From Lentisphaeria bacterium UBA1732 (GTDB taxonomy: Bacteria; Verrucomicrobiota; Lentisphaeria; Victivallales; UBA1829): a stretch of DNA of 64,000 bases. Below, piece by piece: positions 3,142 through 57,705 of this stretch. The notes under the pieces were generated by a model that was not told the DNA's origin, did no database searches, and was given only the letters and a program-made list of their open reading frames with translations. A program made the translations under genes and the position numbers. The first letter of the stretch is position 1; each line of letters starts with the position of its first letter. Location: positions 2,196 through 66,195 of the forward strand of contig DCIG01000045.1 of the NCBI GenBank assembly GCA_002315855.1. Direction: 5' to 3'.

Positions 3142-5286
3142 TCACGAGATAAACAAAATCTCACGATATTTGGGCAGCAGCCATAAATCATCCGGCACGA
3201 TGTGTTCCAGACGATCCGCCGCGACGCGCAATTCCGCCATTGCCGACAAAATGTTGCGTTCCGCGTTGTCCTCCTCCAATCGCAATTCCAGTTTTTCCGC
3301 CGCAGTAGTCAGTGCGTCCGCAAGGAATGCGACTTTGTTGTAATTTTCTTTTGCGAATGCGGGAGCATCCTGAGAGGATTTCAGCGGCAAGAGGATATTC
3401 AGATGCCGCAGAGCCGCAGGCAAAATAATCGTGCGGGCCATCAGCAAAGAAAGCGAACCTTCGATTCGGATGCGGTTGCGGTAATCATTCATCAGGATTT
3501 CATAACGAGAGCGGATTTCCGCACGTGTGAAAACACCCGTTTTTTCGATGAAAGTGATATTATCTTCTTTCTTGAGAGCTTCCAGCGCATCCAGTGTGTC
3601 CGGCGCATTCGGCAAGCCGCGTTTCGCCGCTTCCCGAATCCAGTCGGCATCATAACCGTTTCCGTTGAAAATCACGCGTTTGTGCTTATTGAAGACTTCG
3701 GCCAGAAGCGAATTGAGTTTGGCAGAAATATTCTGTTTGCCGCCAAACGATTCAATTTTTTCCGCCATGCAGTCCAGCGATTCCGCCGCAATCATGTTCA
3801 GTATGGTGCAGATACCGGCACAAGACTGACTGGAACCGGGAGCGCGAAATTCAAACTTGTTGCTTGTGAATGCAAACGGGCTTGTGCGGTTGCGGTCCGT
3901 GGCATCCAGCGGGAAGGGCGGCAACGCATCAACTCCGATGTGGAAAATACTCTTGCGGTCGCGTTTTTCGCCGTCATTTTCAGTTTCCGAACTCAACTGT
4001 TCCAGCACATTGACGAGCTGGGAACCAAGGAAGATCGAGATAATTGCCGGAGGCGCTTCATTTGCGCCCAAACGGAAATCGTTGCCTTGCGTCGCCGTCG
4101 CCGCGCGAAGCAAATCGCTGTGCATATCGACCGCGCGAATAATGGCACAGAGCGTGGTCAGGAAAATGGCATTCTGACGGGGGTTTTTACCCGGATTGAG
4201 GAGATTGACGCCATCGCAGGCCAAAGACCAGTTGTTGTGCTTGCCGGAACCATTGATGCCCGCGAACGGCTTTTCGTGGAGCAGGCAAACCAGCCCGTGT
4301 TCTTCCGCCGTCAAGCGCAGGATTTCCATAATCAGCATATTGTGATCGACAGCCAGATTAATATCTTCAAACAGCGGAGCCAGTTCAAACTGAGCGGGCG
4401 CGACTTCATTATGGCGTGTTTTGGCAGGGATGCCGAGATGCCACAAGCGGCGTTCCACATCAGCCATAAACGCCAGTACGCGGGGGTGAATCGCGCCATA
4501 ATAATGGTCGTCCAGCTGCTGATGCTTCGGGGGAGGCGCACCGAAGAGGGTGCGCCCCGTCTGAATCAAATCGGGGCGAGCCAGATAGAAATTGCGGTCA
4601 ATCAGGAAGTATTCCTGTTCTGCTCCCAGACTGATTTGCACATGGGCGTCTTCGCTGTTTTCGCCGAATGCGTTCATCAAGCGGTGAACCGCTTTCTTCA
4701 TGTACTGAATCGAGCGCAGAAGAGGAGTTTTCTTGTCCAGAGCTTCACAGTTGTAACTGCAAAATGCCGTGGGAATGCAAAGCGTGGCGCTGTTTGTGCC
4801 GCGCCGGATAAAAGCCGGACTGGTGGGGTCCCAAGCCGTGTAGCCGCGAGCTTCAAATGTGGAACGCAAACCGCCGGAGGGGAAACTTGAGGCATCCGAT
4901 TCGCCGACAATCAGGTTCTTTCCTGAAAACCTGGCGATAAAATTCTGGTCTTCATCAGGTTCCAAAAGTGCATCATGCTTTTCCGCAGTTGTCCCCGTGA
5001 GAGGCTGGAACCAGTGTGTGAAGTGGGTTGCGCCTCTGGAAATCGCCCAGTTTTTCATTGCGGTGGCCACATCATCGGCGATTGCAGGGTCGATGGCTGC
5101 GCCGTCACGGACCGTTTTAATCAGTTTCTGAAACGTTTCGTTCGGAAGCAATTTTTTCATTTGTCGCGTATTGAAGACATCTTCGGCGTAAGAGGATGTT
5201 ACTTCTTCCACAGAACACCCCTCACACTTCCGGGGGATTCCGTTTGCGGCGACGGATGAAACCGCGTTTTCTCTTGGTGTACTCAT
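3142..5286 (-). CDS. glnN: glutamine synthetase, type III
   Basis: 714 aa, the length class of GSIII. The N-terminal block '...AISRGATHFTHWFQPLTGTTAEKHDALL' and the catalytic-domain blocks (NGSGKHNNWS, FRAPGSS) match. Confidence 0.9.
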   Translation of the reverse strand: MSTPRENAVSSVAANGIPRKCEGCSVEEVTSSYAEDVFNTRQMKKLLPNETFQKLIKTVRDGAAIDPAIADDVATAMKNWAISRGATHFTHWFQPLTGTTAEKHDALLEPDEDQNFIARFSGKNLIVGESDASSFPSGGLRSTFEARGYTAWDPTSPAFIRRGTNSATLCIPTAFCSYNCEALDKKTPLLRSIQYMKKAVHRLMNAFGENSEDAHVQISLGAEQEYFLIDRNFYLARPDLIQTGRTLFGAPPPKHQQLDDHYYGAIHPRVLAFMADVERRLWHLGIPAKTRHNEVAPAQFELAPLFEDINLAVDHNMLIMEILRLTAEEHGLVCLLHEKPFAGINGSGKHNNWSLACDGVNLLNPGKNPRQNAIFLTTLCAIIRAVDMHSDLLRAATATQGNDFRLGANEAPPAIISIFLGSQLVNVLEQLSSETENDGEKRDRKSIFHIGVDALPPFPLDATDRNRTSPFAFTSNKFEFRAPGSSQSCAGICTILNMIAAESLDCMAEKIESFGGKQNISAKLNSLLAEVFNKHKRVIFNGNGYDADWIREAAKRGLPNAPDTLDALEALKKEDNITFIEKTGVFTRAEIRSRYEILMNDYRNRIRIEGSLSLLMARTIILPAALRHLNILLPLKSSQDAPAFAKENYNKVAFLADALTTAAEKLELRLEEDNAERNILSAMAELRVAADRLEHIVPDDLWLLPKYREILFIS

Positions 5287-5317
5287 GGAACGTTTCCTTA
5301 AAAAGAAAAGTTAAAGG

Positions 5318-5357
5318 AGTTCATTTCAAATATCCGGCAATGACTTTGAAACGAGCT
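5318..5357 (-). repeat. 13-bp-stem hairpin, a compact member of the intergenic inverted-repeat family; possible terminator/attenuator just upstream of glnN
   Basis: Arms agttcatttcaaa (5318-5330) and tttgaaacgagct (5345-5357) pair with 1 mismatch and 1 G-U, around the loop tatccggcaatgac. On the minus strand it is followed by a T-rich tract and then the glnN ATG 32 nt away. Confidence 0.45.
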
Positions 5358-5546
5358 TAAAGGGGGATGTGTCAAGCTGTTTTTCAAAAAAGTTGAGGAG
5401 CAAATCGCAAAGAGTTTTCTCATTGTCGAAGGACATTTACAATTCTTCAAAGAAAAAACTCTGCAAAATCACTCTGCTTATGTTTGGAAAAATACTCAAA
5501 AATGCAACTTTTGAAAGCAACGAAACCGCAGCTTTAAAAGAAGTTC

Positions 5547-5567
5547 GAGGGACAAAAAATGTCCCTC
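5547..5567 (-). terminator. candidate terminator after purE
   Basis: Hairpin gagggaca-aaaaa-tgtccctc. On the minus strand it is followed by gaacttctttt. It lies 26 nt past the purE stop. Confidence 0.35.
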
Positions 5568-5592
5568 ATAAAAGGTCAGACGAGTTATGCAG

Positions 5593-6090
5593 TCAAGCAA
5601 GCTGTGCCTGAAGAGCAGCATCATCCGCCAGAACCTTGGCTGCCTGTGCTTTGCGGAATTCCAGCAGCCTGGCGGCAAGAGCCTTGTCATTCATTGCCAG
5701 CATTTCGACAGCCAGCAGAGCGGCATTTTTTCCTCCGGCAGAACCAGCAGTTACCGTAGCGACGGGGATTCCGGGGGGCATTTGCACCATAGCGAGCAGA
5801 GAATCCAGCCCGTTAAAAGGCGCAGACGCCATCGGGATGCCGATTACAGGACAAATCGTATGTGCCGCAATCACTCCGGCGAGATGAGCCGCCATACCGG
5901 CAGCACAGATGAAGACGGAAGTGCCGTTTTTTTCTGCATTTTTCGCCACATCTGCGGCTTCATCGGGAGTGCGGTGTGCGGACAAAATGCGGGCGGTAAA
6001 AGATACATCGAACTGTTTCAGTGTATCAAATGCACCTTTCAGTGAGTCAAGATCGCTCTTGCTCCCCATGATAATCGTAACTTTTGCCAT
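5593..6090 (-). CDS. purE: 5-(carboxyamino)imidazole ribonucleotide mutase
   Basis: 165 aa. '[11 protein letters not shown]...SAHRTPD...[21 protein letters not shown]' are the hallmark PurE blocks. Confidence 0.9.
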
Positions 6091-39067: not shown

Positions 39068-40009
39068 ATGAAAATCTCTGAATTTAACTCCAAACACAAC
39101 TTCATTGCCGGTCTCCTCGCTGCCATCCTTTGCGAAATCATCTTCGGTTTCAGCTTCTTTTTCACGCGGAGGACTGTTACTTCGGTTCACCCGTCGGATT
39201 TGCTCAGCTGGCGTTTTGTCCTTGCCTCTCTGATTTTTTCAGTCGGAGCCTTGACCCGTCTCATCCACATTGATTATCGCGGCAAAAAAGTTCTCCCGCT
39301 GTTTGGCATTGGACTTCTTTTTCCGGGCCTTTGTTTCCTCCTCGAAACAACCGGGACCAAACTCACCACTGCCTCCGAAACCGGCATTATCATTTCCACG
39401 TCATCCGTGATGACTCTTTTCCTTTCGCTCCTGATTCTCCATAGCAAACCTTCCAAATACCAGTGTTTCGGGATTGCCTGCGCATTCCTCGGCACAGCCT
39501 GTTGTGCCGTTGCGAAAGGCCTTGAACTGAGTTTCAGTCCGTTGGGCTATCTTCTTCTGTTCTGCGGGATTACCTGTTACAGCTTCTACAGTGTCCTTTC
39601 GGCTCGTCTTGACCCTCGTCTTTCTGCGGTGGAGCGTACTTATTGCATCGTCTCGATTGCCGCTGTGATTTACACGTCGATTGCCCTGACCCGCCACATT
39701 TCCGATGGAACGCTCAGTCAGTATCTTTCTTTGCCGTTCCGCGACCGTAATTTCCTGATTTCCGTTTTATATTTGGGCGGATGCAGTTCCGTATTCGCCC
39801 TTTTCCTCTGCAATTTTTCCATTGCCCGCATTGGTGCAATTCGCTTTTCCAGCTTCATCGGTATTGAAACGGTTACCTCCATCTTTGCCGGTGTCCTCAT
39901 TTTACACGAATCTTTCCCGTTGATGGAAGCTCTCGGCGCGGCTCTCGTCATTGCCGGTGTCTATCTGACGAACCGCCGTCCGGAACTCTTTCCTCACGGT
40001 GATAAATAA
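39068..40009 (+). CDS. DMT superfamily (EamA-type) transporter, paralog 1
   Basis: 313 aa with 10 TM helices and two EamA-like halves. Confidence 0.85.
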   Translation: MKISEFNSKHNFIAGLLAAILCEIIFGFSFFFTRRTVTSVHPSDLLSWRFVLASLIFSVGALTRLIHIDYRGKKVLPLFGIGLLFPGLCFLLETTGTKLTTASETGIIISTSSVMTLFLSLLILHSKPSKYQCFGIACAFLGTACCAVAKGLELSFSPLGYLLLFCGITCYSFYSVLSARLDPRLSAVERTYCIVSIAAVIYTSIALTRHISDGTLSQYLSLPFRDRNFLISVLYLGGCSSVFALFLCNFSIARIGAIRFSSFIGIETVTSIFAGVLILHESFPLMEALGAALVIAGVYLTNRRPELFPHGDK

Positions 40010-40018
40010 CATTTTTGT

Positions 40019-40969
40019 ATGAAACTCATCTCTTCAGCCTTTCTTTCTCAAAAACGCTTCCTTGCCGGTGTCCTCACTGCCATCCTTTGTGAAATCATCT
40101 TCGGCTTCAGCTTTTTCTTCACGAAAAAAACGGTTTCCGTTGTTTCTCCCATGGATTTGCTCAGCTGGCGTTTCCTGGTCGCCTCTCTGATATTCGGGAT
40201 TGGTGCTTTGACTCGCCTGATACGCATGGATTTCCGCGGCAAAAAAGTCCTCCCGCTGTTTGGAATCGGACTTGTTTTCCCCTGCCTTTACTTCCTGTTT
40301 GAAGTCCGCGGCGTAATCCTCACCACATCCTCGGAAACGGGCATTGTCATTGCCACTGCACCCGTCATGTCCATCTTGCTTTCCATGCTTTTCCTCCATG
40401 AGAAAACCGCCGGATTCCAGTGCATCGGCATTGCCTGTGCTGTCATCGGCACCATCCTTTGCGCCGTTTCAAAAGGCCTGGATTTGAGTTTCAGCCCACT
40501 TGGTTATTTCATGCTCCTGTGCGGAATCGTCTGTTATTGTTTTTACGGCGTCCTTTCGATGAAACTCGATCCCCGTCTTTCCTCTGTGGAACGCACCTGC
40601 TGCATCGTCGTAACTGCCGCCGTGATTTACTCCTCGTTCGTCTTGATTCGACATGCCTTCTCCGGTACGCTTTCTTCTTTCCTTACCTTGCCGTTCCGCA
40701 ATCGTGATTTCCTGATTGCCATTCTCTACCTTGGCGGTTGTTGTTCGTTCCTTGCCCTTTTCCTCTGCAATTTTTCCATTGCCCGCATTGGTGCCGTTCG
40801 TTTTGCCAGCTTCATTGGAGTGGAAACGGTCGTTTCCATTCTTGCCGGTGTCCTGATTCTCCACGAATCCTTCTCATGGATGGAAGCTGTCGGTGCTGTT
40901 TTGGTCATCAGCGGTGTCTATCTGACGAACAGCCGCCGCACTTCTCATCACAAAAATTCCGAATCCTGA
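40019..40969 (+). CDS. DMT superfamily (EamA-type) transporter, paralog 2
   Basis: 316 aa, roughly two-thirds identical to the upstream paralog by eye (for example 'ILCEIIFGFSFFFT', 'DLLSWRF', 'FRGKKVLPLFGIGL', 'FLCNFSIARIGA'). It starts 9 nt after the paralog 1 stop. Confidence 0.85.
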   Translation: MKLISSAFLSQKRFLAGVLTAILCEIIFGFSFFFTKKTVSVVSPMDLLSWRFLVASLIFGIGALTRLIRMDFRGKKVLPLFGIGLVFPCLYFLFEVRGVILTTSSETGIVIATAPVMSILLSMLFLHEKTAGFQCIGIACAVIGTILCAVSKGLDLSFSPLGYFMLLCGIVCYCFYGVLSMKLDPRLSSVERTCCIVVTAAVIYSSFVLIRHAFSGTLSSFLTLPFRNRDFLIAILYLGGCCSFLALFLCNFSIARIGAVRFASFIGVETVVSILAGVLILHESFSWMEAVGAVLVISGVYLTNSRRTSHHKNSES

Positions 40970-44249: not shown

Positions 44250-44731
44250 TCTTTTGACACTTCCATGGCGACTGCTGTTTCCCCGCATTGTTCCCTGTTC
44301 TTGCAGAATCTGCAATCTGCCCAGATTTTTTCGGGAAAACTCTGCTTGTCCACGATTTCAAAGCCCATCCGCGTGAAAAATGGGACGCGGTAGGTCAGTG
44401 CGAATACCCTTGCATGGTCAGCCTTGTTTTTTGCCCGCACGATCAGAGCTTTGATGAGTGCCGTCCCGATACCTTTGGCAATCAGTGCTTTGCGCACGGC
44501 CAATGACCGGATTTCATACAGCGAGTTCCCGAAGTCCCGCAGCGCGGCGCAGGCGATGACTTTGCCCTCTTCGTTCTCTGCCACCATGAAATTCCCGATC
44601 CTTTGGAGAATATCCTCCACCGGACGCGGCAGCAGCAGACCTTCCGGTACATATTCCGTTACAATTTCATGGATTGCCGTAACATCCTCCGGGGTTGCAT
44701 CCCGGAGCGTATATGCGGTTTCGTTAGTCAT
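44246..44731 (-). CDS. GNAT family N-acetyltransferase (short ArgA-like)
   Basis: 161 aa. The acetyl-CoA-binding motif region is '[20 protein letters not shown]'. The C-terminal Cys cluster is '[10 protein letters not shown]'. Confidence 0.7.
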
Positions 44732-45686
44732 TTTCCTGGAAAAAGCGTATGTTGCGGAATTTTTGGTAACGCTGTTCCTGAAGCTCTTCAGCTGTCATCG
44801 GACTCAGTTCTTCCAGCGCTTTTTTCAAGTCTCTCTTCAGATACGCCGCCGCCTTGGCATAATGATGATGTGCTCCGCCGATTGGTTCCGGGATGATTCC
44901 GTCGATGATGCCCAGTTTCAGCAGTTCGTCTGCGGTCAGTTTCAGGGCCGCCGCTGCTTGGGGGGCGTAGGCTCGGTCTTTCCACAGGATTGCGGCGCAT
45001 CCTTCCGGCGTGATGGCGGAATAATACGCATTTTCCAGCAGATACACTCTGTTTCCCACGCCCAGTGCCAGCGCTCCGCCGGACCCGCCTTCGCCGATGA
45101 CGATGCAGACCACGGGCACGTTCAGCGCGAACATTTCCCGCAGGTTTACGGCGATTGCTTCACCGATATGGCGTTCTTCTGCTCCCACTCCGGGATATGC
45201 GCCCGGCGTGTCGATGAATGTTACAATCGGAAAATGAGCCAGTTCTGCCAGCTTCATCAGCCTCAGGGCTTTGCGGTAGCCTTCAGGGTTGGGACTCCCG
45301 AAGTTCCGCCGGATATTGTCTTTGGTGTTGCGTCCTTTTTGGGTCCCGATGACCATGACAGGGCTTCCGTCCAGTTTCGCGAAGCCCCCCACGATTGCCG
45401 CGTCGTCCGCAAATCTCCGGTCCCCGTGAAATTCCATGAAATCCGTGAAAATTCGCCCGATGTAGTCCAGTGAATACGGGCGGCGCGGATGCCGTGCCAG
45501 CTGAATCCGCTGCCATGGCGTTAAGGATGAGTATATTTCTTTCTTCGCGGCGGTGAGTTCCCTCCGCAGATGTCGAATTTCCATCGCATGGTTGTTGACT
45601 CCGTTCAGTTCATCTTGACGAATCAGTTCCATGATGTGCTGTTCGATTACTTCGATTGGTTTTTCAAAATCAAGGGATGCAGGCAT
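44724..45686 (-). CDS. accA: acetyl-CoA carboxylase carboxyltransferase alpha subunit
   Basis: '[22 protein letters not shown]...[19 protein letters not shown]' and '[14 protein letters not shown]' are canonical AccA blocks. Confidence 0.9.
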
Positions 45687-45716
45687 AGAAGTTCCTGATG
45701 TTATGGTTCTTGCTGA

Positions 45717-46835
45717 TCAGAGCATCGGTATCGCGATTTCCACCGGTGTCCCTTTCGGAACAAGTTCGTATAGTTCGGTAACGTCATCGTTGGTCATGCG
45801 GAAATATCCCGGCGTTCCGCTGGTTGTATCGGGGATTCCCGATTGGTTGGTTCCGTGAATCGCTGTTGAGGGGCCGCTCCCTTCCACGGGATTCAGTGCC
45901 ATCCATCGTGCTCCGCAGATATTTTCCTGCGACCCGTAGGAATACTTTTGTCCGTTGACGGTCCAGACGGGGGCCGGTTCTTTGTTCACGATTTTGAATT
46001 TCCCTCCGAAGGTGTCGGAGATACTGCTGCCGGGATAGATGTTGTAGATTTTGAATAGCTTGTCGCCGGAAAAAAGCAGAAGTTTGTTGTAGTCTCTGCG
46101 GATGAAAATGGACCATGTGCTCCGCGGTATTTTGAGTTCCTGACCGATTTTCAGCCTTGTATTGTTGGTTGCCATGCTGTTGGCTCGCTGAATCGCTTCC
46201 ACGGTCGTCTGTGTGCGTTTCGCGATGCTGGACAGATTGTCTCCGCTGACGACTTTATACATCTCGAATGTTTCTGGATCGTCTCCCGAATGATAGATTT
46301 CGAGACTTGTTCGTCCCAGCAGTTTGGCCGCCTTGTCATAGACCGGGTCTTTCGGGGTCGCCGTGTCGAAAAGATTCCGCAATGTGGTTCTTGCCGTTGT
46401 ATATTCTTTGCGGGAAAATTCCACATACGCTTTTTCATACTGATCGTTCAACGCCTTTTGCCGTGTCGTCAGCTTTTGAGTTTCAGCCGTTTGATTGACA
46501 TTGGGGCGTTCCGTCGCAGGATTGGAAATCGGCGTCGTATCGGGGGCTTTTGATTTGCTGCCTGCATTGCCTTGTGTGCTTGCCGCCGCTTGAGTCTGTG
46601 TCGCGGGCGGATTTTCCCTGCGCGAGAACCAGTGGCGCACATAATCCCCGTATTTCCCCCAGAAAAAAACGGTACTCCATAGGATCCCTGCTGCTGTAAG
46701 CAGAATCAGTATGATGACAATTGGGGCTTTCGAACGTTTTTGGCGGAAACGTTGCGGGTCAGCGTACCTGATACCATGGGTACCTGTTCCCCCTCTCTGG
46801 TTGTATGAAAACCTGGACATATCCGACTCCGGCAT
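45717..46835 (-). CDS. membrane-anchored LysM + YkuD (L,D-transpeptidase)-like protein, catalytic Cys absent
   Basis: N-terminal TM. LysM domain ('YKVVSGDNLSSIAKRT...IQRAN......LKIGQELKIP'). The YkuD fold is present with 'IHGTN', but 'TPGYFRM' replaces the [ST]HGC[IV]R[LM] motif. Confidence 0.7.
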   Translation of the reverse strand: MPESDMSRFSYNQRGGTGTHGIRYADPQRFRQKRSKAPIVIILILLTAAGILWSTVFFWGKYGDYVRHWFSRRENPPATQTQAAASTQGNAGSKSKAPDTTPISNPATERPNVNQTAETQKLTTRQKALNDQYEKAYVEFSRKEYTTARTTLRNLFDTATPKDPVYDKAAKLLGRTSLEIYHSGDDPETFEMYKVVSGDNLSSIAKRTQTTVEAIQRANSMATNNTRLKIGQELKIPRSTWSIFIRRDYNKLLLFSGDKLFKIYNIYPGSSISDTFGGKFKIVNKEPAPVWTVNGQKYSYGSQENICGARWMALNPVEGSGPSTAIHGTNQSGIPDTTSGTPGYFRMTNDDVTELYELVPKGTPVEIAIPML

Positions 46836-46931
46836 GATGAATCCGATTTCCCGCCGATTCCATAACGCTTTGTTTGAATTGGCTTTCCATCAGATGGTAT
46901 GTGCGGCATTTTTCAGTACCGCGTTTGGAAA

Positions 46932-47125
46932 ATGCTGATTTCAAGAGAGTTGATTTCAAACGTTATTGACGGTAAGATTGAAAAAAATCTTCGCGCAGTT
47001 GCCGGGCGCAGTTTGAGGCGGCTGCTGGATAAGCAACCGCCGAAAACATTCTTCCGGCAAATGTCGTTGAGACTTCCAATGTCCCCGGCAGGACGTTTGA
47101 AATTAGCCCTGCTGACAAAAATATG
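46932..47125. repeat. intergenic inverted-repeat element, copy A
   Basis: Outer arms gatttcaaacgt (46951-46962) and acgtttgaaatt (47094-47105). The core 47011-47070 matches 57601-57660 at 50 of 60 positions. Internal hairpins are ggcggctgc/gcaaccgcc and gccgaaa/ttccggc. Confidence 0.6.
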
Positions 47126-47420
47126 ATTCCCAATGAATGGAGATACCCTTAATATAACACGTATCTTTGCTTTTTCCACTGTTTTACGAAAAAAAGAATG
47201 GAAATATCAGTTTTTTCCATCCTCTGATGCCTCTGACGGAATAAACAATCATCTTTTCTCTTCTTGCAAAAGTCAGCCCCTTGTCTTCTTTCTTCGATTG
47301 CGTCCTGTAACAGTAGTTCCGCTCTGCCGGTTACTTGGCTCTCCTGCTTGGCTCTTGCCTCGCAGAGGACGGCTCCGCCGGTTGCTCCGCGGGCAGCTCT
47401 AGAACTTTGTTCAGGACATC

Positions 47421-49163
47421 TCAGTTTTGACCTGGGGCAAGCGCGATGCGGAAGCCGAGGCCGAGGCTCGCGTTCGACGGGACGCCGCTGCTCCGGCACG
47501 CTGCACGGCAGCTCCTGGCGATGTTGCTCCAGCCGCCGCCACGGTACACGCGGTCCGACGAGCTGCTGTCTTTCCCCCGCGTAAACTCCGCTTTCGCTTT
47601 GCTGCTGTCATCAGTATAATCATCCAAACACCACTCCCACACGTTTCCGCTCATATCGTACAGTCCTAACTCATTCGCCTTTTTCGTTCCTGCTTCGTGT
47701 GTCTTACTGTTGTTCTTTAATAATTGTTCTACGTCCCATTTTGAGTCGTCCAGCTTTTTGTCTCCTGAATTTTCATAGTACCAGCCAACTTCGTCAAGCG
47801 TATCACTCCCGCTGTATTTGTATCCTTCACTCTTTTTCCCTCCCTTCGACGCATACTCCCACTGTGTTTCCGTCGGCAACGTGAAGTGATAACCACTTGG
47901 CGCTTTCCCGCTCTTATTCAGCTTTTCGCAGAAATCCATCGCATCATACCAGCTGACTTGCTCCACCGGCAGTTTATCACCCTTAAAATATGACGGATTA
48001 CTTCCCATCACTGAATCCCACTGTTCCTGCGTCACCTCATATTTCCCAATGTAATAATCTTGCGTCAAGGTCGCGGTGTGGGGTACCTCGTTTTCGTAGT
48101 TCTCCCCATCATTGGCACTCATCGTGTAACTCCCCGCTTCCACTTTTACAAGTTCCAGTGAAACCTTGTTATTCAGATTCAGCTCGATAACCTGAATATT
48201 TTCTTCATCTGTCTCATTTTCTGCCGTTTCCGATGGAGCCTCTGTAGATTGCTTTGATGGAGTTTGTTTTTCTTCAGCATTCCTGTATTCCACTGGGGCA
48301 AGCGCGACGCGGAAGCCGAGGAAGCTGATCGAGTCCGACGGGTCGCAGCAGCTCCGGTACGCTGCACGGCAGAACCTGGCGAAGCTGTCCCAGCTGCCGC
48401 CACGGCACACGCGGAACGACGAGCTGCTGTCTTTCCCCCGCGTAAACTCCGCTTTCGCTTCGCGACTGTCATCGGTCCAATCATCCAGACACCACTCCCA
48501 CACGTTTCCGCTCATATCGTACAGTCCTAACTCATTCGTCTTTTTCGTTCCTGCTTCGTGTGTCTTGTCTCCTGAATTTCCTTCGTACCACGCCACTTCT
48601 CCTACAGTATTACTCCCGCTGTATTTGTATCCTTTACTCTTCTTCCCTCCTCGTGCCGCATACTCCCACTGCGTTTCCGTCGGCAGCGTGAAGTGATAAC
48701 CAATCGGCGCTTTCCCGCTCTTATTCAGCTTTTCACAGAAATCCATTGCATCGTGCCAGCTGACACTCTCCACCGACAGTTTATCACCCTTAAAACATGA
48801 TGGATTACCTCCCATCACCGATTCCCATTGTTCCTGCGTTACCTCATATTTCCCGATGTAGAAGTCTTGCGTCAAGGTCGCGGTGTGCGATTTTTCATCA
48901 GAGAAGTTCTCTCCATCTTTGGCACTCATCGTGAAGCTCCCCGCTTCCACTTTCACAAGTTCCAGTGAAACCTTGTTATTCAGCTTGATTGACAGAATAT
49001 TTTCTGTAACAGACGGAATCTGATTATCATTTCCCTGAATGGAAGATATTTGCACATTTTCTTTCGTTTTGTTGTTGTTCTTGTCTTTTGAGTAGCTTAA
49101 AAAAAACAATATCGTTATACCGAGGATAAAGAATAAAATGGGGAATATGATATTTTTTTTCAT
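47421..49163 (-). CDS. membrane-anchored protein with two tandem FGE-sulfatase (SUMF1 / C-type-lectin-fold) domains; candidate DGR variable protein
   Basis: N-terminal TM. There are two 287-aa-period repeats, each with 'YIGKYEVTQEQW', 'VSW.DAMDFCEKLN', 'LPTETQWEYA', 'GNVWEWC' and 'RGG.W....R.CRAA.R......LGFR.ALAP'. Confidence 0.85.
   Translation of the reverse strand: MKKNIIFPILFFILGITILFFLSYSKDKNNNKTKENVQISSIQGNDNQIPSVTENILSIKLNNKVSLELVKVEAGSFTMSAKDGENFSDEKSHTATLTQDFYIGKYEVTQEQWESVMGGNPSCFKGDKLSVESVSWHDAMDFCEKLNKSGKAPIGYHFTLPTETQWEYAARGGKKSKGYKYSGSNTVGEVAWYEGNSGDKTHEAGTKKTNELGLYDMSGNVWEWCLDDWTDDSREAKAEFTRGKDSSSSFRVCRGGSWDSFARFCRAAYRSCCDPSDSISFLGFRVALAPVEYRNAEEKQTPSKQSTEAPSETAENETDEENIQVIELNLNNKVSLELVKVEAGSYTMSANDGENYENEVPHTATLTQDYYIGKYEVTQEQWDSVMGSNPSYFKGDKLPVEQVSWYDAMDFCEKLNKSGKAPSGYHFTLPTETQWEYASKGGKKSEGYKYSGSDTLDEVGWYYENSGDKKLDDSKWDVEQLLKNNSKTHEAGTKKANELGLYDMSGNVWEWCLDDYTDDSSKAKAEFTRGKDSSSSDRVYRGGGWSNIARSCRAACRSSGVPSNASLGLGFRIALAPGQN
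47445..47555 (-). other. candidate DGR variable region VR1 (C-terminus of domain 2)
   Basis: 37 codons. 17 of them differ from VR2, only at codon positions 1-2, and 16 of the 17 are NNC. The flanks are identical to those of VR2. Confidence 0.6.
48306..48416 (-). other. candidate DGR variable region VR2 (C-terminus of domain 1)
   Basis: This is the counterpart of VR1, 861 nt away, with the same invariant scaffold codons and the same set of variable codon positions. Confidence 0.6.
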
Positions 49164-49441
49164 TTCCGGCTCCTTGCTGTGTTTTGTTCACAATATTGTG
49201 TAAATCGTTGTTTTCTCCGATTGCTTGACAGCATTGGAAAATATAGCACAGTCTTCTTTTTTTTCAAATGATGGACTGCATCTTTTTCCTGCTGCTTCAT
49301 TGATAAGGAATAACTGCTTTGAAAACAGCTTCGCTTCATGTATAAATCACTGGAATGAATACCTGTATGGCGCGGTCTGCGAATCGGTGAAAGTCAATAT
49401 TCAGGAAAGCTGAAATTATCTCAAGGAATAAGAACTTCCCA

Positions 49442-51586
49442 TTACTTGATGTTGGGGTACAGCTGTTGAATATCATCCAGATTGCGGGCTGTTTTGGGCG
49501 TATTCGGCAATTTGTTGATCATATCAATGATTTTTTCCGGCAAGGTCGGAACTTTGCAGGTGTGCAGGGTGCGGATTGCCGAGAGCAGGCCGGCAGACAC
49601 GGCGTCTGCGGTTGCCGTGATTTCGGTTTCACCCGGCATCAGTTCTGCCGCCGTTTTCAGATTCCCGCTGAGAATTGCCGCCGCTCCGATCAGCGTGTCG
49701 TCGGGTATTGTGGAGGTCGGATAAGCCGTTCGGTACGAAGATACAATGATACTGGACGAAAGATACTCGATACTTCCGGCTACATCCAGAGATGGGGTCA
49801 GTGCCTTGTAGACATTTTCCAGCTGATCGATTTTTGCTGTCCCCTGCACAATCCATTCGATCAGTTCAGGCTGTTGCACGACTTGCGAGGACAGCAGTTG
49901 TCTTGCCCCGGAGAATCGCCCCGTGATCAGCAGTTGATAGAGCCTTTGACGCAGATTGTCTTTCAGTTCATTCAAATCTGCGCTGTTTTTTTCTGCAATT
50001 TCTTTTTTCAACTGTTCCGAACGGCTCTTTTCCTGCTTCAGTTCTTCCGTTGCGAGATACAATTCGTTTTCCAGAGATTCAATTTCCGTTAAATTCTCTT
50101 CGTTTTGGCTTTTCAGAAGCGGAATGTCGTTCGTTTGCAGATAATAAAGCTCGTTGGACAGTACGATGTAGTCATACTCCAGATCTTCGAGATAGCTGTT
50201 GTTGACGTTCGTGTCCTGATTTTGAATGCTCACGATGGGCGCGCGTCTGGCAAGCAGATAGTTGAGATGCGAGGAAATGTAACTCATGAGGCGTTCGTTT
50301 TGACGGTTTTCCTCTTCAAATGCCTTGTATGCCTTTTCCGCTTCTTCCACAAGTCTTGAATACGGAATGTTCGGATCGGAGGCAAGCCGTTCAAAGGAAT
50401 CAATCTTCGCGTAAGACGAATTTTCTCGCTTGATTTGGATGTTGTCCAGCAGCATGAAAATTAAGATTGCCACAACCAGTGTTACTGGCAGCAGGATAAA
50501 CATCAGATGCAGAAAAGCTCGGTTTCTCGTTGTCGCGTTTTTGCGTTGCAGTCGTTCCCGTCTTCGGATGGTTGCCGCATATTCATTCTGGATTTCGTAA
50601 TTCAGTCTTCGGATGGATATGGTGTGTACCGCCGGAATATAGGACTTGTTCGGGGCTGTGATTTGGCGCACTTTCCAAATCGCATTGAGCAGTTCTTCCA
50701 TATTGGCAAAACGGCGGCCAGGCTTTTTCGCAATCATCTTTTTGATGAGGGAGGCCACGGGATTCGGCAGTCCGTGCACTATGTTTTCCGGCGGTTCCGG
50801 TTTTTCCAGAATGTGCTGTCGGGCCAAATCGGGTATCGCGCTGGCGCGGAACGGCAGCATTCCCGTAATCATTTGATACAAGGTGATGCCCAGACTGTAA
50901 ATATCGGTGCGCGTGTCCAGCGGCTCCCCGGAAAACTGCTCCGGACTCATGTAGGATGGACTGCCCGAAATATCCATGTTTTTCCGCCAGTCCTGCTGGT
51001 ACATTGCCAGTCCCAGGTCGGTCAGTTTGGCTATCCCGTCATCCGTCAGCATGATGTTGTCCGGCTTCACGTCCCGGTGAATCAGACGGCTTGCTTCCCA
51101 CGCATAATACAGTGCTTCGGCAATCTGCTGCACGATATGCAGTGCCTCATCCACCGGAATCCGCTTCTCGCGGGACAGTCGCGATTTCAGCGTTTCGCCG
51201 CGAATGTACGTCAGTGCCATGTAGCTGAATCCGTCTTCTTCGCCCACGGCAATGGATTGCACCAGATTGGCGTGGCTCAGCTGCGCGGCGGCGCGGGCCT
51301 CGTTGAGAAAGATTGATTTGCCGGAATGGTCGTCTTTTTCGGTTGGGAAAAGTTTCAGTGCCACCTGTCGTTCCAGCGAAATCTGCTGCGCCAGAAAAAC
51401 CATCCCGCTTGTGCCTGACCCCAGATGGGCCAGAATCAGAAAGTCGCCGATGATGCACCCCACTTCAAAGCGCGAGGCCGGCACCACCACTGATTTCTTG
51501 CAGGCCGGACACAGAACTCGCTTGCCCGCTTCAGGGGCGTCTGTTTGAAGTTTATAATGGCAGAATGGACAGGCAAAGTGCATCAT
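49442..51586 (-). CDS. Ser/Thr protein kinase with N-terminal zinc ribbon, one TM helix and a coiled-coil-rich extracytoplasmic domain
   Basis: 'CPFCHYKL...CPACKK' is the zinc ribbon. Kinase subdomains are present: 'LGSGTSGMVFLA', 'VALKLF', 'HRDVKPDNIML', 'DLGLA', 'GSPSYMSPEQ'. The TM is 'FLHLMFILLPVTLVVAILIFMLL'. Confidence 0.85.
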   Translation of the reverse strand: MMHFACPFCHYKLQTDAPEAGKRVLCPACKKSVVVPASRFEVGCIIGDFLILAHLGSGTSGMVFLAQQISLERQVALKLFPTEKDDHSGKSIFLNEARAAAQLSHANLVQSIAVGEEDGFSYMALTYIRGETLKSRLSREKRIPVDEALHIVQQIAEALYYAWEASRLIHRDVKPDNIMLTDDGIAKLTDLGLAMYQQDWRKNMDISGSPSYMSPEQFSGEPLDTRTDIYSLGITLYQMITGMLPFRASAIPDLARQHILEKPEPPENIVHGLPNPVASLIKKMIAKKPGRRFANMEELLNAIWKVRQITAPNKSYIPAVHTISIRRLNYEIQNEYAATIRRRERLQRKNATTRNRAFLHLMFILLPVTLVVAILIFMLLDNIQIKRENSSYAKIDSFERLASDPNIPYSRLVEEAEKAYKAFEEENRQNERLMSYISSHLNYLLARRAPIVSIQNQDTNVNNSYLEDLEYDYIVLSNELYYLQTNDIPLLKSQNEENLTEIESLENELYLATEELKQEKSRSEQLKKEIAEKNSADLNELKDNLRQRLYQLLITGRFSGARQLLSSQVVQQPELIEWIVQGTAKIDQLENVYKALTPSLDVAGSIEYLSSSIIVSSYRTAYPTSTIPDDTLIGAAAILSGNLKTAAELMPGETEITATADAVSAGLLSAIRTLHTCKVPTLPEKIIDMINKLPNTPKTARNLDDIQQLYPNIK

Positions 51587-57568: not shown

Positions 57569-57705
57569 TGAGCTGATTTCAAAAGTCGTTGGCGGGCATG
57601 GTTTGAGGCGGTTGCTGGGGAAGTAACCGCCGGAAACGCTCTTCCGGCAAATGCCGAAGAAAATTTCAAATCTCCCGCAGGACTTTGAAAATTTGTCCCC
57701 GCCTA
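57569..57705. repeat. intergenic inverted-repeat element, copy B
   Basis: The left arm tgagctgatttcaaaagtc (57569-57587) is complementary to the right arm gactttgaaaat (57681-57692). Internal hairpins are ggcggttgc/gtaaccgcc and gccggaa/ttccggc. The core matches copy A at 50 of 60 positions. Confidence 0.6.

Follow-up and report, generated by a model that had tools for sequence, protein, structure and literature searches.

The window analyzed here is a stretch of 64,000 nucleotides from an uncultured, probably Lentisphaeria-type bacterium in Asian-elephant faeces. On its minus strand, a gene at 47421..49163 encodes a 580-aa protein that consists, according to the ORF list, the translation and Pfam, of an N-terminal membrane anchor, a first FGE/CLec domain, an acidic, Ser/Thr-rich linker and a second FGE/CLec domain. 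The product matches PF03781 in two stretches (E=6.8e-89), and the 580-aa gene is likewise called in the JGI assembly L001. The hydrophobic N-terminal segment (NIIFPILFFILGITILFFLS, 49095..49154, minus strand) has no lipobox cysteine and is, judging from the translation, probably a signal-anchor; both lectin domains would then be extracytoplasmic. An internal duplication alignment, together with Pfam and, for the second copy, comparison with the PDB, delimits two domains of the FGE-sulfatase/CLec fold on the minus strand, namely copy A (residues 61-291, 48291..48983) and copy B (residues 330-578, 47430..48176), the latter with an 18-residue insertion. Each copy ends in a variable region, designated VR2 in copy A and VR1 in copy B. 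Upstream of this target gene, 278 nt away and on the same strand, lies a kinase gene (49442..51586), which encodes a Zn-ribbon, a Hanks-type Ser/Thr kinase (Pfam Pkinase, E=2.6e-49), one TM helix and, from the translation, a coiled-coil-rich C-terminal part of ~320 aa.

The best sequence relative of the target in the PDB, found with domain copy B, is TvpA (2Y3C, E=7.7e-30), compared with E=8.5e-15 for the best catalytic FGE, and the alignment to 2Y3C crosses the VR and reaches the last residue of TvpA. A preliminary description of this DNA had assigned the tracts to the C-terminal ends of TvpA-like CLec/FGE-fold domains, and these data bear out the assignment. The catalytic cysteine pair of SUMF1-type FGE, which we take to be C336/C341 in the human enzyme, is not conserved in the target in an HMMER alignment to human FGE: only the first cysteine has a counterpart, in the invariant CRAA cysteine, while Ala stands in place of the second and three residues are missing. 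As far as its sequence tells, the target is closer to the variable proteins of diversity-generating retroelements (DGRs) than to catalytic FGE, and the predicted product would be a membrane-anchored, extracytoplasmic binding protein with a double C-type-lectin fold.

Compared codon by codon, the internal VR2 (48306..48416) and the C-terminal VR1 (47445..47555), both on the minus strand and 37 codons long, differ at 17 variable codons by 22 substitutions, distributed as 12, 10 and 0 over codon positions 1, 2 and 3. Sixteen of the variable codons have the form NNC in both VRs, and the remaining one is GCG/TCG. Apart from the split between positions 1 and 2, these counts had been given in the preliminary description and were reproduced; the identical flanks that it reported are also present, and the identity reaches further, over 42 nt on the upstream side and 13 nt on the downstream side (GCGCTTGCCCCAG). 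The homogeneous tract common to the 3' ends of both domains thus amounts to 166 nt (47432-47597 and 48293-48458), with 144 sites identical and 22 different. In the duplication alignment, the upstream blocks, at 48417..48458 for VR2 and 47556..47597 for VR1 (minus strand), are identical and contain 12 adenines, none of them changed; these blocks probably serve cDNA integration as 5' homology, or result from gene conversion, rather than being mutagenised tract. At the other end, sequence comparison places the GC-rich 3' boundary of VR2 at 48293..48305, a candidate IMH-type end, and that of VR1 at 47432..47444, with the stop codon 8 nt on (both minus strand). When the VRs are compared with each other rather than with a template repeat (TR), both end in CTCGGCTTCCGC(R)TCGCGCTTGCCCCAG, and the copies diverge right after. 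DNA folds of the 141 nt around each 3' end, set against shuffled sequences, gave no BPP-1-type hairpin or cruciform downstream of the VRs (z=-0.07 and +0.56). Such a structure is not universal among DGRs.

Outside the tracts, the duplicated domains have diverged in the ordinary manner, as had been claimed, with 19, 13 and 34 differences at positions 1, 2 and 3 of the 175 other aligned codons (12.6% overall, 19% at third positions). The distribution over codon positions differs between core and flank (Fisher p=5e-6). Furthermore, the 143 non-variable sites of the tract, 55 third positions among them, show 0 differences, an outcome with P=4.5e-9 at the flank rate. Adenine is found at 6.9% of the invariant core sites as against 32–33% in the flanks, and GC3 is 0.88 in the core versus 0.55 in the flanks; in terms of base composition, an adenine-depleted scaffold of this kind is typical of TR/VR pairs. 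Neither VR templated the other, since A is found at 9/22 (VR1) and 5/22 (VR2) of the differing sites.

A search with TR peptides led to a genuine DGR cassette in an ENA metagenome (L011), which comprises a caspase-FGE target, HRDC, RVT_1, a TR and an FGE target. The L011 TR encodes NRVNRGGSWNNNARNCRAANRNRNDPANTNNNLGFRVALAP and carries A at 21 of the 22 sites that vary between VR1 and VR2 (Fisher p=6e-15), and the adenine match extends to codons with a single varying position (AGT/AGG/GAC/ACG). L011 belongs to a different organism, its reverse transcriptase (RT) adjoins its targets, and its TR is ruled out as the cognate template: 87/120 nt (VR1) and 85/120 nt (VR2) are identical, and third positions differ. 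Taken together, the position-1/2-only changes, the A-poor scaffold, the match to the L011 TR and the relation to TvpA indicate that both tracts are VRs derived from one template. Indeed, both show every intrinsic property of DGR variable regions, in agreement with the DGR-type reading proposed at the outset. That proposal had included a template with AAC at all 16 NNC codons. AAC throughout is not the most parsimonious solution, because the VRs share non-A bases; parsimony gives AAC at eight codons, AGC at three, TAC at two, ATC at two (the I/V codon being one) and GAC at one, plus ACG, and some of the non-AAC codons could still be AAC. The parsimonious template allows about 15^8 x 4^9 = 7e14 variants per VR.

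The reported absence of a TR, RT or avd from the window was confirmed, for the TR by three methods and for the RT by tblastn and Pfam. In an ungapped scan of the window, the best other match reached 55/125, no more than chance would give; gapped blastn, run with VR1, VR2 and the predicted TR as queries, turned up nothing there, and neither did a template-agnostic scan for AAC density, which detected the TRs of three control DGRs. With six DGR RTs and two accessory proteins as tblastn queries, nothing better than E=0.1 was obtained, and Pfam assigned the neighbouring genes to housekeeping families only, with no RT. The cassette search covered the first 72.9 kb of the 82.6-kb contig; on the left it reached the contig end (L002), and on the right a Logan contig with 99.8% identity (L004) added 6.6 kb. 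Counted from the VRs, this range extends over 49.7 kb in one direction and 22 kb in the other, and the searches found within it no TR and no gene for a DGR RT, Avd or HRDC. Three nearby candidates were rejected: the 372-aa gene just downstream, considered as an RT, is a LysM-YkuD L,D-transpeptidase by Pfam; an 88-aa ORF, considered as Avd, has no Pfam family match; and a Mu-type portal gene ~18 kb away, considered as the sign of a DGR prophage, is isolated among non-phage genes with no RT.

Beyond the contig, pattern scans of genome, metagenome and viral contigs with the scaffold (N at variable codons) gave 0 matches, the VRs themselves included; these collections lack the source genome, which makes the scans uninformative on the TR. 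From 5.8 billion proteins, a profile that combined VR1 and VR2 with two predicted TR peptides retrieved TR-encoded ORFs of other DGRs, none of them with the scaffold of the target. An exhaustive HMMER search with the VR1/VR2 profile, covering 1.84 billion representatives, yielded 11,280 matches, many of which carry 2–21 VR-like stretches and none of which has the KDSSSS...CRAA.RS...PS scaffold. A domain-2 search for a paralogous DGR-adjacent target or a strain variant found nothing above 67% identity, the protein cluster of the 580-aa product is a singleton, and a family-alignment scan of GTDB found no orthologue, the best relative being 41% identical. A DGR RT was located within 10 kb in only 5 of 80 related loci, and RT and TR stand beside FGE targets in the related loci L067 and L081. 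Homologues have scrambled residues in the same columns as the variable codons of the target. In one of them (P0003), the scaffolds of two VR-like tracts show third-position drift and an indel, and in another (P0002) the NNC layout is lost in the last tract. Compared with this decay, the pristine tracts described here point to comparatively recent homing.

We consider it fairly likely, though well short of certain, that the cognate cassette lies elsewhere in the same genome and that the 580-aa protein is a remote two-VR target of that DGR. One template repeat, situated away from the examined stretch, would be transcribed and then reverse-transcribed, with misincorporation opposite template adenines during reverse transcription, and the cDNA would have replaced the last ~111–125 nt of each lectin-fold domain. 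The cassette of RT, TR and accessory genes would accordingly be expected elsewhere in the genome of the target, and the VRs, which are identical in a second assembly, may still be subject to diversification. Retrohoming from a single template would explain why the non-A sites are letter-perfect despite the 12.6% drift of the surrounding duplicated domains, and why differences occur only at positions 1 and 2 of template AAC, ACG, AGC, TAC, ATC and GAC codons; with no local cassette, it would also make the gene a non-adjacent DGR target with two VRs.

A possible alternative, which we regard as serious but not as the probable one, is that the target is orphaned or quiescent, i.e., that a DGR wrote the tracts, that its cassette was later lost or inactivated, and that the VRs are now frozen alleles that evolve like any other sequence. 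The lack of a cassette in the 72.9 kb examined would be expected in this case, and the decaying tracts of P0003 and P0002 imply that loss of diversifying input does occur in the family. Moreover, when the assembly IMG 3300020112 is compared with the window, three stretches show 13, 38 and 88 SNPs and the interval between 44571 and 50283 shows 0, so that both VRs are identical amid SNPs elsewhere, although the two assemblies possibly come from the same animal or study and the comparison has little power. In the closest Lentisphaeria homologue clusters, with 12–14 members each, variation of the VR-like tracts between samples is almost nil. The gene was also bridged unbroken by both metagenome assemblers, a further point in favour of frozen alleles. 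However, targets with a TR present have also been reported to be static. The lack of any change at the non-variable sites of the tract further implies that drift since the last homing has been far below the 19% seen at flank third positions, and neither the reading frame nor any structural residue is disrupted.

Ordinary paralogue divergence, in which positive selection acts on ligand-binding residues and purifying selection or gene conversion acts elsewhere, would be consistent with the location of the variable residues at the expected binding face of CLec/FGE-fold proteins, and the identical, A-containing 42-nt upstream block could reflect gene conversion. Selection on the protein would nevertheless allow synonymous third-position change, of which there is none in 55 codons, and gene conversion would wipe out the 22 differences. 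Divergence of this kind also leaves unexplained that C is the last base of every variable codon (or the codon is NCG), that the scaffold is poor in adenine, and that the variable sites coincide with the adenines of a real DGR template. On the strength of the codon-position statistics and the L011 TR match, we regard it as effectively refuted and give it very little credence. An assembly artefact, with a heterogeneous population collapsed or fused into a chimeric consensus in place of real haplotypes, is hardly credible either: the contigs of the Logan k-mer assemblies SRR5323927 and SRR1221442 do stop inside the gene before the VRs, at window position 48509, but a 58-nt near-exact intragenic repeat at the break is a sufficient explanation, two JGI assemblies yield the identical 580-aa product, and the reading frame is intact and the scaffold perfect.

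Returning to the remote-target reading, the neighbouring kinase gene suggests what the diversified protein might do. In the homologues P0010, P0012 and P0013, a Zn-ribbon, a kinase, a TM segment and two FGE domains are fused in one chain, which suggests a variable sensor-kinase module, and a kinase gene is located nearby in L009 as well. The adjacent Ser/Thr kinase is thus probably the signalling partner of the target, and the double lectin would most likely pass ligand recognition to this transmembrane kinase; the coupling is predicted from gene context.

How does this locus compare with known DGR targets? TvpA of Treponema denticola (2Y3C) resembles the target in its FGE-sulfatase CLec subtype, its C-terminal VR and the lack of a catalytic cysteine pair. 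TvpA is an extracytoplasmic lipoprotein, and the target is predicted to be extracytoplasmic too, although it is probably anchored by a hydrophobic N-terminus that has no lipobox; TvpA also has one domain and one VR, whereas the target has two of each. The Treponema DGR has seven remote targets, far from the RT, and in this respect is similar to the arrangement proposed here, but the cognate TR and RT are identified there, whereas none was found for the target in 72.9 kb. The claim in the preliminary description that the locus is unusual was overstated, as multi-VR, remote and kinase-linked targets have already been published, including three tandem diversified FGE domains, targets >100 kb remote, multi-VR targets served in trans and kinase-linked CLec proteins (PMC5758913, PMC10907252, PMC7517822). 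The gene with three tandem FGE-sulfatase domains, all of them diversified (Wu et al., 2018, NAR, PMC5758913), likewise joins several FGE domains in a single polypeptide, with a VR at the end of each that is fed there by one TR; its DGR has been identified, whereas the target has two domains and no cassette in the stretch searched. In Thiohalocapsa PB-PSB1, multi-VR targets are known (15 proteins, 21 VRs), and some targets have kinase domains; a TR that is identical at all non-adenine sites acts in trans on loci that have no RT and TR of their own, and one TR-matching target is static in nature (Dore et al., 2024, PNAS, PMC10907252). The target shares with these the multiple VRs, the lack of its own RT and TR at the locus and the kinase association. 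However, the Thiohalocapsa proteins belong to a multicellular phototroph, and most are cytoplasmic and of the STAND/conflict-system type, whereas the target comes from a gut anaerobe and is a membrane-anchored double lectin whose gene neighbours that of a transmembrane Hanks kinase. Cyanobacterial STK-CLec variable proteins, reported together with many remote variable proteins dispersed in the genome (Vallota-Eastman et al., 2020, PMC7517822), also combine a Ser/Thr kinase with a CLec domain that is DGR-diversified, but in one chain that is mostly cytosolic and has a single VR, as opposed to two adjacent genes (fused in P0010, P0012 and P0013), a TM segment in each, and two VRs in the target. 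In summary, the target is a clean new example of a documented layout, with several VRs and a probably remote template, and not a new kind of system.

Two bolder proposals, that a DGR on another replicon or mobile element (a phage or plasmid) serves the VRs in trans, or that the split double lectin and transmembrane kinase form an undescribed hypervariable extracytoplasmic sensing module of non-multicellular gut anaerobes, strike us as improbable; if the former were true, a mobile retroelement would reprogramme a Ser/Thr-kinase sensor of its host. A practical rule does follow from the locus, namely that an intragenic pair of VRs can be recognised without its template by scaffold homogenisation and position-1/2-only differences. 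As many homologues have decayed or static versions, VR-like tracts alone are no sign of ongoing hypermutation. The locus adds a well-defined, probably remote two-VR DGR target, linked to a transmembrane Ser/Thr kinase, from a gut lineage that has been little studied and is probably Lentisphaeria. Should its cognate DGR exist and be active, target and kinase together would constitute a programmable extracellular sensor, with binding-site variants numbering about 1e29 in combination, and could help to find out what gut anaerobes perceive via hypervariable receptors.

The two variable regions lie on the minus strand of one gene (47421-49163), which encodes a 580-aa protein, VR1 at 47445-47555 and VR2 at 48306-48416. 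Codon-level alignment of the domain copies reproduced the pattern reported in the preliminary description: the 37-codon cores differ by 22 substitutions in 17 codons, with 12 at position 1, 10 at position 2 and none at position 3, and 16 of the 17 variable codons have the form NNC in each copy, the remaining one being GCG/TCG. The identical tract edges noted there reach beyond the core by 42 nt on its upstream and 13 nt on its downstream side, and the homogeneous tract (47432-47597 and 48293-48458, minus strand) covers 166 nt with 144 identical sites. Third positions do differ elsewhere in the duplication, as had been stated, since the other 175 aligned codons carry 19, 13 and 34 differences at positions 1, 2 and 3 (12.6% overall, 19% at third positions). 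The codon-position contrast between core and flanks is pronounced (Fisher test, p=5e-6), and given the flank rate the probability of zero change at the 143 non-variable sites is 4.5e-9. Adenine occupies 6.9% of invariant core sites vs 32-33% in the flanks, and GC3 rises from 0.55 in the flanks to 0.88 in the core.

PF03781 (FGE-sulfatase) matches two stretches of the protein (E=6.8e-89). A hydrophobic N-terminal segment, NIIFPILFFILGITILFFLS, without a lipobox cysteine, is followed by two homologous domains of ~230-250 residues each, separated by an acidic, Ser/Thr-rich linker. The domain copies are 86-87% identical across ~0.6 kb in a repeat search, and are, judging from this alignment, an old internal duplication. 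The TvpA-type CLec/FGE fold proposed earlier held up, as among solved structures TvpA (2Y3C, E=7.7e-30), a DGR (diversity-generating retroelement) variable protein of Treponema denticola, is nearest in sequence. Catalytic FGEs match far more weakly (E~1e-14), and in alignment to human FGE a single active-site cysteine position, the first of the pair, is conserved, with three intervening residues deleted. With an incomplete cysteine pair and TvpA as nearest structure, the protein is therefore a predicted binding module rather than an enzyme.

The homogenised, adenine-poor scaffold with position-1/2 scrambling of NNC/NCG codons fits templated adenine mutagenesis; neither selection nor gene conversion yields such a perfect scaffold together with scrambling confined to those positions. 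Neither VR can have templated the other, because among the 22 differing sites only 9 (VR1) and 5 (VR2) carry A. Searching with a profile built from both VR peptides plus two predicted template peptides yielded short ORFs, which are template repeats (TRs) of other DGRs. One of these, P0127, belongs to a complete cassette found on several ENA contigs, in the order caspase-FGE target, HRDC gene, RVT_1 reverse transcriptase (RT), TR and FGE target. Its TR is not the cognate template because it matches VR1 at only 87 and VR2 at only 85 of 120 nt. It has A at 21 of the 22 variable sites and non-A at 88 of the 98 invariant sites (p=6e-15), and the agreement extends to codons variable at one position (AGT, AGG, GAC, ACG). 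Three independent lines, the intrinsic pattern, the adenines of this foreign TR and the relationship to TvpA, strongly support the original identification of both tracts as DGR variable regions. The parsimonious template would contain eight AAC, one ACG, three AGC, two TAC, two ATC and one GAC codon, and would give each VR a coding capacity of about 15^8 x 4^9 = 7e14 sequences.

The window is part of contig EMG_10000288 (82,642 bp; IMG metagenome 3300001598) and starts 2,269 nt in from one of its ends; the metagenome comes from the faeces of an Asian elephant aged six years (PMC4160196). On the far side L004, a contig of a different sample with 99.8% identity, adds 6.6 kb past the window edge, so that we covered 72.9 kb, from -49.7 kb to +22 kb relative to the VRs, and all but the last 9.7 kb of EMG_10000288. 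In these 72.9 kb an ungapped scan found no TR (best other match 55/125), VR1, VR2 and the predicted TR had no match in gapped blastn, and no tract exceeded six in-frame AAC codons per 120 nt. The densest tract, with six, lies within a kinase gene (50198-50317); the same scan detected the TRs of three control DGRs at 12, 10 and 9. Likewise, tblastn of the 72.9 kb with six DGR RTs, one Avd-position accessory and one HRDC protein returned nothing better than E=0.1, confirming that TR and RT are missing from the window. The neighboring genes are housekeeping genes (transketolase, recN, accA, LysM-YkuD transpeptidase, acetyltransferase). Two tandem EamA-family transporter paralogues (39068-40009 and 40019-40969, plus strand; DNA identity 70-77%) are an ordinary tandem duplication. 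A ~100-nt intergenic repeat occurs at 46985-47095, at 57575-57685 and, in opposite orientation about 2 kb left of the window, at L002:212-325 on the same contig, upstream of the LysM-YkuD gene, recN and a heparinase/ulvan-lyase-like gene. Its mean column identity is 77%, its two predicted hairpins are backed by one compensatory pair only, it has no Rfam match, and either a REP/MITE-like element or a common leader is conceivable. Beyond the window, at about 66.9-68.1 kb (L004:17523-18779), a Mu-type portal gene (PF06074; phrog_113, E=3e-63) sits between glycosyltransferase/PqqD-like and ABC-transporter genes, with no further phage genes and no RT nearby, and is probably a prophage remnant.

Protein searches found no TR-derived ORF or paralogous target with this scaffold. 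An exhaustive search with a 67-residue FGE C-terminal profile gave 11,280 proteins at E<=0.001; among the best 150, many contain at least two such stretches, with a maximum of 21. Six proteins from this search (P0385, P0406, P0409, P0416, P0417, P0449; 96-188 aa) consist solely of 2-4 tandem ~45-residue modules (RGGSW..A..CRSA.R...P......GFRV) without the rest of the FGE domain.

We lean toward the view that the tracts are a remote target whose DGR persists elsewhere in the same genome; an orphaned or quiescent target is less likely. The perfect scaffold shows that both VRs were last overwritten from one template at a time that is recent compared with the duplication's age; with all 55 third positions unchanged, drift since then is, as a back-of-envelope value, roughly <5% vs 19% in the flanks. 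By contrast, decay is seen in P0003, a 61%-identical homologue whose two VR-like tracts have third-position drift and an indel, and in P0002, which has lost the NNC layout in its last domain. These two closest multi-domain homologues have in common a conserved group of four genes beside the FGE gene that match no Pfam family (L008:403-2982, 5337-6086; L009:1201-3846, 4645-5346; about 500, 115-120, 240-246 and 233-249 aa; 51-67% identical between loci), none of them in the window.

Consistent with quiescence, a second assembly (IMG 3300020112) shows 13 SNPs/16.2 kb, 38/14.6 kb and 88/12.3 kb against the window and zero differences at 44571-50283, both VRs being the same, though the assemblies may not be independent samples. 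Between the two JGI assemblies SNPs are markedly denser at 60.2-63.5 kb than across 44.6-58 kb, a hint of a recombined segment, and a 29-nt indel separates the window (~60.6 kb) from L004 (11254-11278) at an ABC-transporter gene start (580 vs 572 aa calls). VR-like tracts among FGE/CLec homologues are often static: in the closest single-domain clusters (P0195, P0182, P0240; Lentisphaeria wherever named) they are almost invariant across 12-14 members each from different samples. Near P0195, whose surroundings hold tRNA-synthetase and NifU/NifS genes, ~11 kb retrieved (L096) contained no RT, on a contig that ends ~360 nt from the gene. Two independent Logan assemblies of the organism (SRR5323927_13, the source of L004, and L007) end at the same base, 48509, inside the FGE gene, in a 58-nt near-exact repeat common to both domains; this break is a k-mer repeat effect rather than VR heterogeneity.

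All unusual-looking aspects of the locus have precedent. Non-adjacent targets occur in 45 of 372 DGRs, >100 kb away in ten (Wu et al., 2018; PMC5758913). One study described 15 targets with 21 VRs, including multi-VR and kinase-bearing targets, loci diversified in trans and one static target still matching a TR (Dore et al., 2024; PMC10907252), and another cyanobacterial Ser/Thr kinase-CLec fusions with 76 remote targets (Vallota-Eastman et al., 2020; PMC7517822). The present locus differs in having kinase and receptor split, a double lectin predicted to lie outside the cytoplasm and a gut host that is probably a member of the Lentisphaeria. The kinase gene (49442-51586, minus strand), 278 nt upstream of the FGE gene on the same strand, encodes a Zn-ribbon, a Hanks-type Ser/Thr kinase, one TM helix and a ~320-residue coiled-coil-rich C-terminal part; a kinase gene is also present at L009, the locus of another homologue. 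The homologues P0010, P0012 and P0013 combine in one chain a Zn-ribbon, a kinase, a TM helix and a pair of FGE domains that end in VR-like tracts. Because homologues fuse kinase and FGE domains, we infer that the membrane-anchored double lectin may expose a pair of diversified binding faces on the extracytoplasmic side and would pass its signal via the adjacent kinase.
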